Positions 10,434-48,251 are shown, counted from the stretch's first letter. The stretch is DNA of 51,926 nt from Candidatus Giovannonibacteria bacterium RIFCSPLOWO2_02_FULL_45_28 (GCA_001780725.1 MFIM01000006.1:1-51926); one strand, 5' to 3'. The notes: generated by a model from the sequence alone, not told the origin. Numbers and translations are program-made.

Positions 10434-10853
10434 TTAGGAATCCGTTTCGTCTTTCGGAATAAAACTTCTTAGCGCGCGTTTTTGCTGCGGCGTGAGTTTT
10501 TCGAACAAGATATTTTCAAGCTGATTTATATTTCTTTCGCGAATTGATTCAAAAAGTATATGCCCAAGTTCATGTATGAACGATTGAAGAATATCATACG
10601 ATTTTTTGTGCTTATATTTTGCGGGGTTTAAGTAAAGAGTGTGCGTGTTCGGTTCCCACAACCCGTCCAACAACTCTTCTGTTTCATATTTCAATCTGCG
10701 CTTTAATACGATTTGTTTGATTTTTGTATTGATCGATTCAATAAACCTGCGAAATATCCAATCAACTAAAGCATCGCCGCTCTTATAATGTTTGCCATAG
10801 AAATGCCTTGGTTTTTGCATTGGCAGCTCCTTTTCGGCAAATTCTGTATTCAT
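10434..10853 (-). CDS. Hypothetical HExxH metallopeptidase-like protein
   Basis: GLWEP...LYLNP...FIHELGHI zincin motif; start uncertain (track extends to 10925). Confidence 0.55.
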   Translation of the reverse strand: MNTEFAEKELPMQKPRHFYGKHYKSGDALVDWIFRRFIESINTKIKQIVLKRRLKYETEELLDGLWEPNTHTLYLNPAKYKHKKSYDILQSFIHELGHILFESIRERNINQLENILFEKLTPQQKRALRSFIPKDETDS

Positions 10854-10948
10854 TCTAGCACGCAGAATCGTTTTTGTAAAGTCGTTGCTTTTTGCTGTGC
10901 TTCTTGTTAGTCTTTGCGTAGACAAAAGAATATTGAAAGGAGCAAAAA

Positions 10949-12192
10949 TGGCGCGATCTTTGCAAGAAACCGTGCGCGAAGATGGGTTGAGGGTGATTAC
11001 GAAAAAGTTGAAAATTGCTAAAAGCGTTATTGTGTCTGTCTCGGCTTTGGGCGGATGCGCTTACGATCCTCAAGATAAAACAGGCCTCTTTCATTTTTTT
11101 GAGCACATGGCCTTTAAAGGAACCAAAACAAAATCAATGCATGAAATTAAAGAGGCGTTGGGTAGGCTTGTGATGAGCAATGCGGGCACGCATAATCTGC
11201 GAACTACTTACTGGGGCGAAGCTGTGCACACAAAACTGCCTTTATTGCAGGAGATTGTTTTTGATATTTATTTAAATCCCGTGTTTCCGCCGGAAGAAAT
11301 AGAAAAGGAAAAAGAAGTAGTGCTTAATGAAGCGGCAATGTATGAGGACAATGACAACCATAAAGCGTGGTATTTGCTTTATGGATTATTGTGGGAACAT
11401 AATCCGCAGAGGCGGTTGGGTGTGGGGATCGCCGCCGGCCTTTCAAATATAAACAGAGGGATTTTGCTTGAGACGCATAAAAAATGGTATCAGCCATCTA
11501 ATACGATCGTTGTGGCTGTGGGAAGAATTGACCACGATAAGTTTTTGAATGACGTTAATGACTCGTTTCCATTTGTCGCCGGAAAAGTTGTGTTGTCTGG
11601 TTGGGGCGATGAGGCGGATCAACCCCCGTTTCATAAAGCAATTATTGTTGAAAGAAAAAATCGCGAAAAAGGCGTGGTGGTATGGGGTTGCAAGGTGCCC
11701 AAACTATCTGATCGGGAAATAGATGCGGGAGTAATTTTGTCCAATATGCTCGGCGGCGGTTTTGATTCTTTGCTTTGGACAGAAGTTAGGGAGAAGCGAG
11801 GCTTAGTTTATTCTGTCCACAGCTACTTTGATGTCAATGGCCTCGGAAATTATTTTGGATTTGTTGGGACAATGCTGCCGCCGCGTTTAGATGAAGTTAA
11901 AGACCTTATTTGCGATGTGATTTGCAATTATAATTTAAACGAAGCGCATTTTTGCCGAGCTAGAGAGGTTATAGAAGACGAACATTTGCTTAGTTTGGAG
12001 GACTCTCATGATTGGAACAGAACTATTCACAATCGGATTATTGATGACCGCAAGGATATTTCTATCCTAAATAATTATATCGCTAGGCGTATCAAAAGAT
12101 TGCAAAGCATAACTTTTGAAGAGGTTTTGGAGATGAGGAGAAAGCTAATAACGCCGGAGCGTCTGGCTTGCGCCGTAGTAAAGCCCTGTTAA
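10949..12192 (+). CDS. M16 (pitrilysin/insulinase) family peptidase
   Basis: HFFEHMAFKGT (HxxEH), NAGT, VREKRGLVYSV; ATG 10949 preferred. Confidence 0.9.
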
Positions 12193-43835: not shown

Positions 43836-44407
43836 GTGAAATTTAAAAAAACGAGCTTTTTGCTTTTGGTATTCTTGTGCTTAAGCTGCGCCGGCATAAA
43901 AAGTGCTGATTACGATTACAAACCCTCAACGTTTTACGCGGAAAAAGTGGTGCTCATTAGCATAGACGGACTATCCTCCGAAGTTTTGCTAAAAACCTTC
44001 CCTGATTTGATTAAAGTCTTTGTGGAAAATGGATCGTATTCTTGGAAAGCAAGGTCAGTGTTCCCGAGCCAGACTGTTCCGGCACATATCTCAATGATAA
44101 GCGGAGTTGTTGTTTTGAGCCACGGTTTTATATCAAATTGGATGCCGTTTTCAAGTAAAATATCCGTTCCCACGATTTTTTCTACAGCTCATTCATATGG
44201 AGTTTTTACCGCTACGGTTTTTGAGAGCCACAGATTGGATAAAATTTTTGCGTTGCAAAAAGGTATGGATATAGAAAGCGCGGGCACGCAATTGCGGCTC
44301 CAGTAAAAATTTTCGATACCGCCGCAACCGTTTTATACGCTTTGGGCATCAAGCCGGAAAATATGGACGGCAAAGTTATTGCCGAAGTTTTTGATCAATA
44401 TCAATAA
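43836..44407 (+). pseudogene. Alkaline phosphatase/phosphodiesterase-family lipoprotein, internally deleted and frameshifted
   Basis: LISIDG and SQTVPAH.SMISG in frame 1; C-terminal IFDTAATVLYALG...MDGKVIAE in another frame ending 44407. Confidence 0.7.
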
Positions 44408-44557
44408 GCCTTTACAGGGGGCTTATTTTATTAAATAAAAAAGCTAGCCTTATCTGGCTTTTGTGGGTGGCTCCGCATTGTGAACAATGTTACTGTGTCC
44501 GTCCGAAACTTTAGTGAAGGAGGAGAACCATTTTTGAGAGGCAAAATGAGTATATTT

Positions 44558-44588
44558 ACCCCCACACCAAAGTTTTTGGTGTGGGGGT
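44558..44588. repeat. CCCCACACCAAA-type palindrome, intergenic
   Basis: acccccacaccaaagtttttggtgtgggggt. Confidence 0.9.
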
Positions 44589-44694
44589 TTACATCCCCGA
44601 TTTGCGAGAATATGCCAACCTATAAACTTATTTATCTTGAGCGTAGTCGAAAGACCCCACCCCGCTACTCACTATTGTTTGAAAATACAAACTA

Positions 44695-44723
44695 TTGACT
44701 TTTGGTTGACGATTTGCTACAAT
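44695..44723 (+). promoter_or_regulatory. Sigma70-like promoter for the DGR target gene
   Basis: TTGACT, 17 bp, TACAAT. Confidence 0.55.
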
Positions 44724-44743
44724 TATAGTGTTCGTTGAAAATC

Positions 44744-44799
44744 AATGAGACGAGCATTTTGGACGCCAAACACTTGGTTTCTAAAGTGCTCGTCTCATT
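44744..44799 (+). other. Long leader hairpin upstream of the DGR target
   Basis: aatgagacgagcatttt / aaagtgctcgtctcatt; AGGAGG at 44902-44907. Confidence 0.65.
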
Positions 44800-44915
44800 C
44801 CGAGATGAGACCGCCTGCCGGTAGGCAGGACCGCAAGCCGTCGGATACGGCTACATCTCTCTAAAGTCTCCCAGAGGGACAAAGAGAGAAAATCCAAGAA
44901 AAGGAGGAAAGTGCC

Positions 44916-45758
44916 ATGAAAAGCACAATCCAAAGCGGTCTCTGGAAAGTAGAGTTCGGTGAGCTTGGGGCTACCCTCAAGGTGCTCCAAGACCACGGCG
45001 TCACCCCTGACCATCTGGCGAGGCTTCGTGCCGAGCCCGACTACGCCAAGCGGGTGGCGGAGTTCATGCTCCGAGGCGGTCTCGACGCCTCCATCCATCA
45101 GAAGCTCGCCCGTGCAGTCATGGGCAAGGACTTCTTTGGCGTGGAGGACTGGTCAGCTCTCTACGGCGTGAACTTCAGTCAGAAGCAACTCCGTCAAGTC
45201 GCCGAGTTCCCGTGGGGTGAGGACATTCTCAACTCCACCTGCCCGCTTTGTGGCAAGGTGGTAAAGGACTGCCACTTCGCCTTCGTGGGGCTCGACCGCA
45301 TCAACGGCAAGCCGCTCACCATCCTGAAGTTGCAGGAGCTTCATCCTGCCACGGGGCAACCGAAGTTTCACTCCTACACGAGTGCGTGGTATTCCGAACA
45401 GAAGTTTGCGAGGGAGACCACGATGAGCTTCAGGTGGTATCTGCTCCATCAGAACATCGTCCCGAAGTCGGAGGACAAGACCTACGACGACCAGAAGGCG
45501 ATGCTCACTGCCGACTACGAAGTGCCGTCTGCCGTGACCGAGTCCACGAAAGACCTGCTCGTGTTCCGTAAGACGGGCAACTTCGTGAACTCCTCACGGT
45601 ATGCTCGTTGCGAATGTGTCGCTTCGGTCGGCCGCCGTGTCGATGTCGGCTACTTCGGCGAGAGCGGGCTCGTTGTCTACAGCTACTGGGGCGGCGGCCA
45701 CCGCTGCGGCATCGGTCTGGCCGCCTCTCGGAAGTTCCCCGCAGCTCAGCGAAGCTGA
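44916..45758 (+). CDS. DGR target protein with C-terminal variable region (CLec-fold expected)
   Basis: C-terminus contains the VR; ends GLAASRKF; visibly GC-richer than its flanks. Confidence 0.9.
   Translation: MKSTIQSGLWKVEFGELGATLKVLQDHGVTPDHLARLRAEPDYAKRVAEFMLRGGLDASIHQKLARAVMGKDFFGVEDWSALYGVNFSQKQLRQVAEFPWGEDILNSTCPLCGKVVKDCHFAFVGLDRINGKPLTILKLQELHPATGQPKFHSYTSAWYSEQKFARETTMSFRWYLLHQNIVPKSEDKTYDDQKAMLTADYEVPSAVTESTKDLLVFRKTGNFVNSSRYARCECVASVGRRVDVGYFGESGLVVYSYWGGGHRCGIGLAASRKFPAAQRS
45615..45731 (+). repeat. DGR variable repeat (VR)
   Basis: 117-nt ungapped match to TR; all 22 mismatches lie opposite TR adenines. Confidence 0.95.
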
Positions 45759-45766
45759 GTGCGGGG
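45737..45766 (+). other. Post-VR hairpin (retrohoming hairpin/cruciform candidate)
   Basis: ccccgca-g-ctcagc-GAA-gctgag-tgcgggg; followed by five CTTGA repeats. Confidence 0.7.
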
Positions 45767-45812
45767 CAGGCTGAACCTTGAAGTCTTGAGGGCTTGACTC
45801 TCTTGAACCCTT

Positions 45813-45849
45813 GAGCCTCCGTCCGATTTTTTTCGGCGGAGGCTCTTTT
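45813..45849 (+). terminator. Terminator after the DGR target
   Basis: gagcctccg...cggaggctc-tttt. Confidence 0.75.
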
Positions 45850-46126
45850 CTTTTGTTTTTCAAAAAGTTATTCTGTAAATGTTCTGCTAATGCAGGTGCG
45901 GCTACGGTTTCACCTCGCAGAACATCTCATCTTTGAGATTTCACCAGAGTATCGTCGCCTACGGGTTACGATAGCGTGTGAACCAGATGGAGATAGAACT
46001 TCTTGCTCATCTTTAGCGGAGGTAGCGAAAACATCGCTTGCTCCCGAATAAAATACAGGAAAGAGAGGATATAAGCCTTTGGCAGTAAACCTCAATTTCC
46101 AGTGTCACGGACGAAGATGGGCAAAC

Positions 46127-46243
46127 TATGTCACTTCGGACGGCAACCGTGTCAATGTCGGCAACTTCGACGAGAACGGGCTCAATGTCAACAACTACTG
46201 GGACGACAACCACAACTACAACATCGGTCTGGCCGCCTCTCGG
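46127..46243 (+). ncRNA. DGR template repeat (TR)
   Basis: AAC-rich in-frame copy of the VR; 31 adenines. Confidence 0.95.
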
Positions 46244-46262
46244 CAGTCATTCTCCGTCAATT

Positions 46263-46292
46263 TGAAATACCCTCCTTTCCGAGGGTATTTCA
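46263..46292. terminator. Hairpin between TR and the avd stop
   Basis: tgaaataccctc-ctttcc-gagggtatttca. Confidence 0.65.
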
Positions 46293-46643
46293 TTTAACGC
46301 TCTTGGTTGACCTAATCCATCCGCCAAGCTGTCTTCCTATTTCATCAACCGTCTCCTGCCACTTAATATATTTATTGGCATCAATAACTTTTACTTCTTT
46401 GCAAAGCCGTAAAAACACTCGCAGAAAGTTTAGTTTGATGCTGATTTTTTCTAACACAGGCAGTTTCTCGGCCTTTGAAAGCTGGCTTGCCCAAAGTAGA
46501 TTTTCCAGCACATCCAAAGTAATGTTTTCGCATCTCTGCCAAAGCGTGTGGCGGTCTTGTTTCTTAACATTATTTCGGTAAGAATAAAACTCCTTATACA
46601 GCTCGTAAGTTATTTTGAAAATTGGTATATCAAAATCATCCAT
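46290..46643 (-). CDS. avd: Accessory variability determinant (four-helix bundle)
   Basis: IPIFK.TYELYK...KQDRHTL...LNFLRVFLRL...VDEIGRQLGGW; adjacent to TR. Confidence 0.88.
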   Translation of the reverse strand: MDDFDIPIFKITYELYKEFYSYRNNVKKQDRHTLWQRCENITLDVLENLLWASQLSKAEKLPVLEKISIKLNFLRVFLRLCKEVKVIDANKYIKWQETVDEIGRQLGGWIRSTKSVK

Positions 46644-46646
46644 ACT

Positions 46647-46706
46647 ATGAAAATCTATAAAAATGTTTTTGAGAATACAAAATCTGTCGGTTGGCGGATA
46701 GCTTGA
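46647..46706 (+). pseudogene. Putative DGR reverse transcriptase N-terminal stub
   Basis: MKIYKNVFE then stop after 19 codons; resembles CPR DGR-RT N-termini as I recall them; sits where the RT is expected. Confidence 0.55.
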
Positions 46707-46771
46707 GCATTAGCTAGCGCTGTTCCAAGAAAAAACAGACCGGCGCATACAAAAATTTTTGTTTTCATTTT

Positions 46772-47485
46772 TTAAACCGGTTTAATACCCACCGAAACTA
46801 TTTTGCCCTTTAAAAGCAACCATAGCGTGCCTACTAAAATTACAAATTCTGACCAAAAATCCCACTGGAACCAGTATTGGCTAAGCAGTTCCATTCTGGT
46901 AAATCTGGAATAATACCCTCCGGTCGGGTCTATGTTAAAGATTAAAAATGAGAAATGTCCCAACATTAAAAATGCTGTAAATATTACTGCGCCGATTAGT
47001 ATAAGCTTATAACTCTTTGATGTTTGCGGGGTTGATTTTGTCAAAAACAAAATTCCAAATAGTAAAGCTAAAACTGTCGTATCCGTACTGTGGATATTAA
47101 GGAAGTCCCATAAAAGCTGCGGCCAAACCCTAATATTGCCGCTTCCGGCGGGAAATTCAAAACTTCGCATTCCAAAAACAGAATATCCTTGTTTGTACGG
47201 CAGCCAAACCTCCTGAACAAAAATCATTATCAGTATAATCAAAAGAAGAAATCCTCCCGCCAGAATCCATTTCCAATTTGTGTCTCTTTTTAGATTCAAG
47301 CTTGGTTTGAACATTTCGCATGCCAAACCAATAAGAATAACCAGAAAACCGATCCATGGAGGGCCATAACTTATTGACGGAACATCTCCCAAGTTTATTT
47401 TTGTCCATGTGGGCATCCAGAGCAGCAACAGTAAAACTATTGCGAAGAAAATAAATGCAAAAATGCGATTTGAGGCGTTGCTCAT
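46772..47485 (-). CDS. Multi-pass membrane protein
   Basis: About six TM segments; start MSNASNR at 47485 avoids overlap with the amidase. Confidence 0.7.
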   Translation of the reverse strand: MSNASNRIFAFIFFAIVLLLLLWMPTWTKINLGDVPSISYGPPWIGFLVILIGLACEMFKPSLNLKRDTNWKWILAGGFLLLIILIMIFVQEVWLPYKQGYSVFGMRSFEFPAGSGNIRVWPQLLWDFLNIHSTDTTVLALLFGILFLTKSTPQTSKSYKLILIGAVIFTAFLMLGHFSFLIFNIDPTGGYYSRFTRMELLSQYWFQWDFWSEFVILVGTLWLLLKGKIVSVGIKPV

Positions 47486-48222: not shown

Positions 48223-48251
48223 ACCCCCACACCAAATTTTGGTGTGGGGGT
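48223..48251. repeat. CCCCACACCAAA-type palindrome, intergenic
   Basis: acccccacaccaaattttggtgtgggggt (perfect arms). Confidence 0.9.

Follow-up and report, generated by a model that had tools for sequence, protein, structure and literature searches.

Diversity-generating retroelements (DGRs) are well documented in CPR bacteria (PMC5758913, PMC8144416). The locus described here belongs to the same host group and to the same cassette family as the CPR/Patescibacteria DGRs of the 'CPR set' of Wu et al. 2018 (PMC5758913) and of clade 2 of Roux et al. 2021 (PMC8144416). It is located in a stretch of 51,926 nucleotides from Candidatus Giovannonibacteria bacterium RIFCSPLOWO2_02_FULL_45_28 (GCA_001780725.1, MFIM01000006.1:1-51926), which was analysed as a whole and is hereafter called the window. 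For example, the CPR DGR of Candidatus Sungiibacteriota CP066690.1 (hereafter L006) has a cassette whose DNA is 91% identical to that of the window. Like the other CPR DGRs, the window cassette carries an Avd gene and an A-specific TR/VR pair, and like most of their targets (PMC5758913), its target has no known domain. However, the reverse transcriptase (RT), which is the feature used by surveys to detect the CPR DGRs, is deleted in the window, and the VR of the window is static in the sampled population, unlike in the surveyed elements.

The same comparison can be drawn with the DGR of the Bordetella phage BPP-1 (mtd, avd, TR, brt). Both systems show an A-specific transfer from TR to VR, a VR located at the 3' end of the target gene, an identical G+C-rich IMH-like tail followed by a post-VR hairpin (PMC3240598), an Avd homologue and a stem-loop just downstream of the TR. 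Whereas the BPP-1 element is carried by a phage, that of the window is chromosomal in a CPR bacterium and lacks the RT, and its target protein has no significant match to Mtd. Furthermore, the TR of the window is preceded, unlike that of BPP-1, by a structured RNA domain of 245 nt with its own promoter-like box. In BPP-1, the surrounding RNA described as required lies mainly downstream of the TR (Sp).

The window also resembles a decayed remnant found in another CPR genome (hereafter L007), which has the same target family and the same TR RNA and has likewise lost its RT, but the window shows neither the avd truncation nor the non-A mismatches nor the indel of this remnant. Taken as a whole, the locus is probably a chromosomal CPR (Patescibacteria) DGR cassette that has recently been deleted of its RT, that is non-autonomous and most likely inactive, and whose VR is fixed. 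It would thus be a defective addition to the documented CPR DGRs, notable for its lack of an RT and for its structured 5' RNA domain.

Adenine-Specific Differences between TR and VR

The repeat pair and the signals that surround the VR are the following:

45615-45731, plus strand: VR, codons 234-272 of the target ORF, with all mismatches at TR adenines
45711-45731, plus strand: IMH-like G+C-rich 3' tail of the VR, identical to TR 46223-46243
45737-45766, plus strand: post-VR hairpin, 13-bp stem with one bulge and a GAA loop
46127-46243, plus strand: TR, delimited by alignment to the VR, with 31 adenines largely in AAC-type codons

An earlier note on this DNA, made from the sequence alone, had reported a gap-free alignment of TR and VR in which only adenines are changed. 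Realignment gives the same 117 columns without any gap, and the 22 mismatches all have an A in the TR (16 A>G, 4 A>T and 2 A>C), 22 of the 31 TR adenines being altered in the VR. Many mismatches at other bases would have spoken against a DGR; the realignment of TR with VR contains none. The probability that 22 mismatches all land on the 31 A positions of the 117 is 5.9e-17 (hypergeometric). All 22 are located at codon position 1 or 2 of the ORF 44916-45758, and the repeat has sharp edges, the similarity breaking off abruptly at either side. No third copy of the TR or VR was found within the 52-kb window by a repeat finder and by nhmmer.

The two signals that the earlier note had placed at the 3' side of the VR were also recovered. 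The invariant tail is a 21-nt sequence, ATCGGTCTGGCCGCCTCTCGG, which is identical in VR and TR and which L006 and L007 also keep in their VRs and TRs. The GAA-loop hairpin begins six nt past the end of the VR. The 70-nt stretch 45711-45780, which includes this hairpin, folds as single-stranded DNA with an energy of -19 kcal/mol (z = -3.0 relative to shuffled sequences). Target recognition by the Bordetella phage DGR requires a hairpin/cruciform (PMC3240598). The post-VR hairpin of the window occupies the same position and, by analogy, may play the same role.

The pattern of adenine mutagenesis, on which the DGR signature was claimed, thus holds. The TR/VR signature is genuine, and the cassette family is a bona fide family of CPR DGRs. 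The window contains an A-specific TR/VR pair, a VR at the 3' side of the target with changes that affect the encoded amino acids, an Avd gene, an accessory found in many though not in all DGRs, and an IMH-like tail with its hairpin; it lacks two other attributes of DGRs, an RT encoded in the element and, among the closely related genomes sampled, variation of the VR.

The Target Gene and Its Product

The VR is carried by a transcription unit with these putative or observed parts:

44695-44723, plus strand: promoter-like site (TTGACT, 17 nt, TG-n-TACAAT), from a consensus scan, 10/12 matches with an extended -10
44724-44915, plus strand: 5' leader of the target, about 190 nt, within the block 91% identical to L006
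44916-45758, plus strand: DGR target gene, an ORF of 280 aa, helical towards the N-terminus (about residues 14-95), with an alpha/beta domain at the C-terminus that includes the VR
45813-45858, plus strand: terminator-like hairpin and T-run closing the target transcript, read from the sequence

The promoter-like site lies inside the block common to the window and L006, which starts at 44654 and marks the left edge of the cassette; judging from its sequence, it would act as the promoter of the target. The leader holds an imperfect hairpin (44744-44799, inverted repeat I3) with 26-nt arms that are 85% complementary, and it matches no Rfam family. The sole Rfam signal of the terminator-like region is a weak match to a terminator-like ctRNA.

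A total of 279 homologues of the target protein were found, most of them in CPR bacteria. The protein has neither a signal peptide nor a hydrophobic segment, in agreement with what had been noted earlier about the lack of an obvious signal peptide. Searches in Pfam (in which 52 family members were also run), NCBIfam, PHROGs and PADLOC returned no family for it. The AF2 models have a pLDDT of 87.7 for the full length and of 89.0 for residues 96-280, and the last strands of the C-terminal alpha/beta domain hold the VR. Foldseek found no significant neighbour, either in the PDB with the full-length protein and the C-terminal domain or in BFVD, and a sequence-profile search against the PDB gave nothing relevant. 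The weak Foldseek matches are mostly of CLec type (FGE, EgtB, CarF, TaqVP 5vf4 and mannose-receptor CRD4, with TM of about 0.42-0.45 on the target), with the TSG-6 Link module and a phage FGE-like protein as further ones. The best E was 0.2, and the best probability, 0.41, was that of an uncharacterised phage protein. In the C-type lectin-fold (CLec) variable proteins of DGRs, such as Mtd, TvpA, TaqVP and AvpA, a CLec/FGE-like fold presents the VR residues; such a fold is plausible for the modelled target. As in other DGR targets, the default assumption is that the variable face would bind a ligand.

The target genes of this family have a G+C content of 52-59%, that of avd and RT of the same cassettes being 32-38% and that of the host flanks 37-49%. 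This G+C excess spans the whole target gene, beyond the VR alone, in the window, L006, L007 and L008.

A Structured RNA Domain Upstream of the TR

Two RNA elements flank the TR:

45881-46126, plus strand: structured 5' domain of the TR RNA, 8 helices and 63 base pairs, directly upstream of the TR
46265-46290, plus strand: stem-loop 22 nt past the TR, 10 bp, loop CTTTCC, followed by T-rich sequence; read from the sequence

At the DNA level, a block of 435 nt (45860-46294) is conserved in about 50 RT-bearing CPR loci, as found by nhmmer. In these loci, the same search places the 245-nt 5' domain in front of the TR, for example at 10935-11180 in L006. RNAalifold predicts 63 pairs in this domain, 50 of which show compensatory changes. 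In the alignment, 96.1% of the cells are paired, versus 42-48% when the partners are slid, and none of 500 shuffles matches the observed values. The window copy keeps 62 of the 63 consensus pairs. The 5' domain has no match in Rfam 15: a search of the whole window at the gathering threshold and of 44400-46700 at E <= 1 returned only tRNAs and two chance-level matches.

The stem at 46265-46290 also covaries among family members (alignment A6). Avd-binding stem-loops were described just downstream of the TR in 207 of 278 DGRs (bioRxiv 10.1101/2023.10.23.563531), and that of the window can be regarded as a candidate Avd-binding element and/or as the putative 3' end of the TR RNA. Since the conserved block comprises the 5' domain, the TR and the stem-loop, the TR appears to be part of a separate non-coding RNA of about 400 nt. 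The published analysis of DGR RNA elements covered just 40 nt upstream of the TR (bioRxiv 10.1101/2023.10.23.563531).

Avd and the Lost Reverse Transcriptase

Downstream of the TR RNA lie two genes, one of which is reduced to its first codons:

46290-46643, minus strand: avd (accessory variability determinant), 117 aa, intact, convergent with the TR
46647-46671, plus strand: remnant of the RT gene, 8 codons (MKIYKNVF) and 1 nt, identified by tblastn with the L008 RT, a three-way DNA alignment and blastn to L006

The Avd protein matches Pfam PF22296 (bAvd, E = 5.9e-16) and PHROG 3206 ('Avd protein of DGR', E = 1e-19); against NCBIfam DivGenRetAVD (NF033474) it scores 77.9 bits, slightly under the 80-bit cut-off. 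The lineage-specific changes of avd comprise 5 synonymous and 2 non-synonymous substitutions in the window, versus 6 and 1 in L006.

In the intact relatives L006, L008 and L009 (the last two being a 769-kb JGI contig and a Logan contig), the order is target (plus), TR (plus), avd (minus) and RT (plus). Their RT is a protein of 349 aa of the RVT_1 family with the motifs IGNLTSQ and YTDD, which we take to be motif-4 and catalytic signatures of the DGR type. In all the intact relatives examined, 3-8 nt separate the start of the RT from the avd start codon. In the window, as in L006, the start codons of avd (minus) and RT (plus) are back to back, 3 nt apart (46641-46649 in the window, 11697-11705 in L006), which implies that each promoter is located inside the other gene or that a long transcript, antisense to avd, serves for the expression of the RT.

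In the three-way DNA alignment, identity runs through ATGAAAATCTATAAAAATGTTTTTG and is followed by unrelated sequence; likewise, in the blastn comparison of the window with L006, the homology terminates at 46671. This junction lies 428 nt past the TR, inside the RT coding sequence. The YxDD motif is absent from all ORFs of the six-frame translation of the window. The lone [YF]xDD match, FLDD in a 433-aa ORF, was rejected as a sign of an RT, this ORF encoding an oxidoreductase. The RTs of the relatives, run by tblastn against the whole window, retrieve the remnant alone, by a match of 9 residues, and an HMM built from 120 RTs of the family gives a best E of 0.46 against the 1232 six-frame segments of the window. 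No RT gene was called in the 10 kb beyond the window, and the extended loci likewise have none within 10 kb.

The identical junction is found in GCA_001001105.1 and GCA_001778415.1 (Candidatus Giovannonibacteria), in two JGI groundwater metagenomes and in several ENA assemblies. As these assemblies are independent, the loss of the RT is not an assembly artefact. At the sequence level, the RT gene is removed from codon 9 onward, the remaining parts of the cassette being the target gene, the TR RNA gene of about 400 nt and the intact avd. The earlier reading of the locus as a DGR is therefore right about the signature of A-mutagenesis and about the location of the VR, at the 3' end of an ORF of 280 aa, but the element is incomplete, with an RT cut to 8 codons.

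Relatives of the Cassette and Its Genomic Context

The window and L006 share 91% DNA identity over 44654-46671 and are unrelated beyond. Their flanking genes are wholly different, and both the identity of the cassette and the difference of the flanks extend to L010 (Paceibacterota); the hosts of the window, of L006 (Sungiibacteriota) and of L010 belong to different candidate phyla. Such an identity between candidate phyla, joined to different flanks, suggests from sequence comparison that the cassette has moved horizontally as a unit. Another locus, P0131, was considered as the intact sibling of the window; its RT is 95% identical to that of L006, and it belongs to the L006 lineage.

L007 (Logan SRR6056608 contig, 10700-11700) is a second and independent RT-less DGR remnant. 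Its avd is restricted to 17 C-terminal residues with a stop codon and adjoins a tRNA-His gene. Its TR/VR pair, which was found, like that of L008, by direct alignment, shows several non-A mismatches and a 3-nt indel. L007 thus shows a later stage of decay after RT loss. The window copy has none of these marks, which indicates that the loss of the RT is more recent in the window lineage.

On the right of avd lie a membrane-protein gene and then a gene encoding an Amidase_3 enzyme, both on the minus strand:

46772-47485, minus strand: membrane-protein gene, 237 aa, abutting the RT break

Homologues of this membrane protein occur on about 40 metagenome contigs with 51-89% aa identity (mostly 79-89%), and the flanks of these genes are unrelated to each other. 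In none of these loci does the gene lie beside avd, RT, target or amidase, except in L094, which belongs to the window's own lineage. L005 and L094 are otherwise identical in background, but their copy of the membrane-protein gene is 3-4% divergent, the divergence starting near 46750. This gene seems to be a single-gene module, prone to recombination, that has taken the place of the RT. The arrangement that preceded the deletion is not recoverable from the roughly 40 loci searched that carry this gene.

Other features of this neighbourhood can be mentioned. A perfect palindrome with a 14-bp stem, ACCCCCACACCAAA...TTTGGTGTGGGGGT, occurs twice in the window and no more (44558-44588 and 48223-48251). 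The DGR cassette and the membrane-protein and amidase genes lie between the two copies, and the homology with L006 starts immediately past the left one. The palindromes may be REP-like elements, or they may mark the boundaries of an island. Upstream, a Phosphodiest (PF01663) gene (43836-44408, plus strand) encodes 156 aa that cover profile positions 1-68 of 342, and the typical C-terminus carries on in another frame up to 44408. This gene is probably broken.

Past Homing and Apparent Stasis of the VR

Comparison of the target protein of the window with 59 homologues reveals a non-VR region that is 68-97% identical. Within the VR, 13-18 of the 18 codons that are not A-templated are identical, versus 1-8 of the 21 A-templated codons. 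The contrast is also seen in a sister lineage (P0006, P0014, P0015, P0019, P0020 and P0026), in which 0-1 of 233 non-VR positions differ and yet 12-17 of the 21 A-templated codons do. This is the appearance of active retrohoming in the family.

The window lineage behaves differently. Its nine protein variants carry 1-6 substitutions outside the VR, versus no difference in the 21 A-templated codons, and a single identical VR is found across all sampled assemblies of this lineage (dozens). The exact target protein is indexed in 57 collection blocks, and contigs of up to 87 kb are assembled straight through the VR. The genomes sampled are closely similar, for instance with 2 differences in 2.5 kb (44300-46800) between the window and L092, and the observed stasis of the VR therefore covers a short time.

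One contig, L091, has the same flank with a different VR and was examined as a possible case of VR turnover. It ends inside the VR, and its non-A differences match a distant family member; it was therefore treated as a chimeric or recombinant contig and not counted as VR turnover. Another contig, L093, begins with an inverted duplication at the hairpin.

Two positions distinguish the TR of the window from that of L006, and at both of them the VR of the window agrees with its own TR. Homing thus went on after the split from L006, and the RT was lost later. The heavy diversification of the target that had been claimed holds for the past, as attested by the 22 of 31 adenines changed and by the hypervariability of the A-templated codons. 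It does not show that the retroelement is active at present, the RT being reduced to 8 codons and one VR being found in every sampled genome of the lineage: 'heavily diversified' describes a past state.

Origin and Possible Activity of the RT-Less Cassette

The following scenario would account for the locus. The ancestral unit would have comprised a promoter and leader, the target with its 3' VR, a terminator, the TR RNA of about 400 nt, avd on the opposite strand and the RT. By analogy with the Bordetella phage system (PMC3240598 and bioRxiv 10.1101/2023.10.23.563531), RT and Avd would bind the TR RNA, which would be copied to cDNA with random bases opposite adenines; this cDNA would replace the VR, steered by the shared G+C-rich tail and the post-VR hairpin. 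Homing would have run in the window lineage until after the split from its closest intact relative. A deletion or replacement would then have taken the RT from codon 9 on, the unrelated membrane-protein gene now abutting the break, and the VR, deprived of an RT, would have become fixed in a single, heavily mutated form, with 22 of the 31 template adenines altered. The loss looks recent, with zero non-A mismatches between TR and VR, an intact avd and 62 of 63 RNA pairs kept. All parts other than the RT look functional, which fits equally well a very recent deletion and continued use by an RT located elsewhere.

According to this second view, which we consider unlikely, the cassette would be non-autonomous but active, an RT from elsewhere in the genome, from a co-resident element or from a phage acting in trans and occasionally rewriting the VR. 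The preserved RNA structure and the absence of non-A mismatches can be read in this way, as can the intact avd with its mostly synonymous lineage-specific changes and the intact IMH-like tail and hairpin. Furthermore, about 10% of the DGR-bearing complete genomes have more than one DGR (PMC5758913), and in CPR bacteria the RT belongs to a very large family, of at least 7991 proteins at E <= 1e-20. However, the VR is identical in 9 of 9 protein variants and in every assembly of the lineage, whereas RT-bearing sisters change 12-17 of 21 codons at zero background divergence. Moreover, no RT is found over about 45 kb on the upstream side and 17 kb on the downstream side, and no Giovannonibacteria appear among the 80 closest genome loci listed for the L006 RT query; their absence among the named matches in the 120 closest RT proteins argues weakly in the same direction.

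There is likewise a small chance that the TR RNA, Avd and target are kept under selection, either with an RT provided in trans or after a loss of the RT that was itself selected because it locked a useful VR.

It is very improbable that the locus is a complete and ordinary DGR whose RT escapes notice because the repeat was misassembled or because the gene sits slightly beyond the window. TR/VR repeats are frequent sites of breaks or collapses in metagenome assemblies, and such accidents are illustrated here by L091, which looks chimeric, and by the inverted duplication of L093, but the break in the window is away from the repeat, inside the RT coding sequence, and is the same in several independent NCBI, JGI and ENA assemblies; as for an RT further out, this gene begins within 3-8 nt of avd in every intact relative examined. 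Finally, chance or an ordinary duplication without retrohoming, for which nothing speaks beyond the existence of a 117-nt repeat, can be dismissed given the confinement of the mismatches to adenines (P = 5.9e-17) and to codon positions 1 and 2, the adjoining Avd gene and the RT present in homologous cassettes.

Implications for CPR DGRs

The window locus points first to a gap in detection. DGR surveys begin with the RT gene; RT-less loci that retain a target, a TR RNA and Avd therefore go unreported. The window locus demonstrates that RT-less cassettes exist, and L007 that RT loss recurs in the family.

The covarying domain of 245 nt is a possible new RNA element, located outside the 40 nt upstream of the TR that were covered by the published analysis. 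If it belongs to the RT-Avd ribonucleoprotein, the template RNA of CPR DGRs would be organised unlike that of the Bordetella phage model.

A lineage with a fixed VR, found beside sisters with differing VRs and an identical remainder, also bears on the question of when hypermutation is kept and when it is lost. Should the cassette be served in trans, or should the loss of its RT have been selected, this lineage and its RT-bearing sisters would constitute a natural experiment on the keeping versus the switching off of hypermutation.
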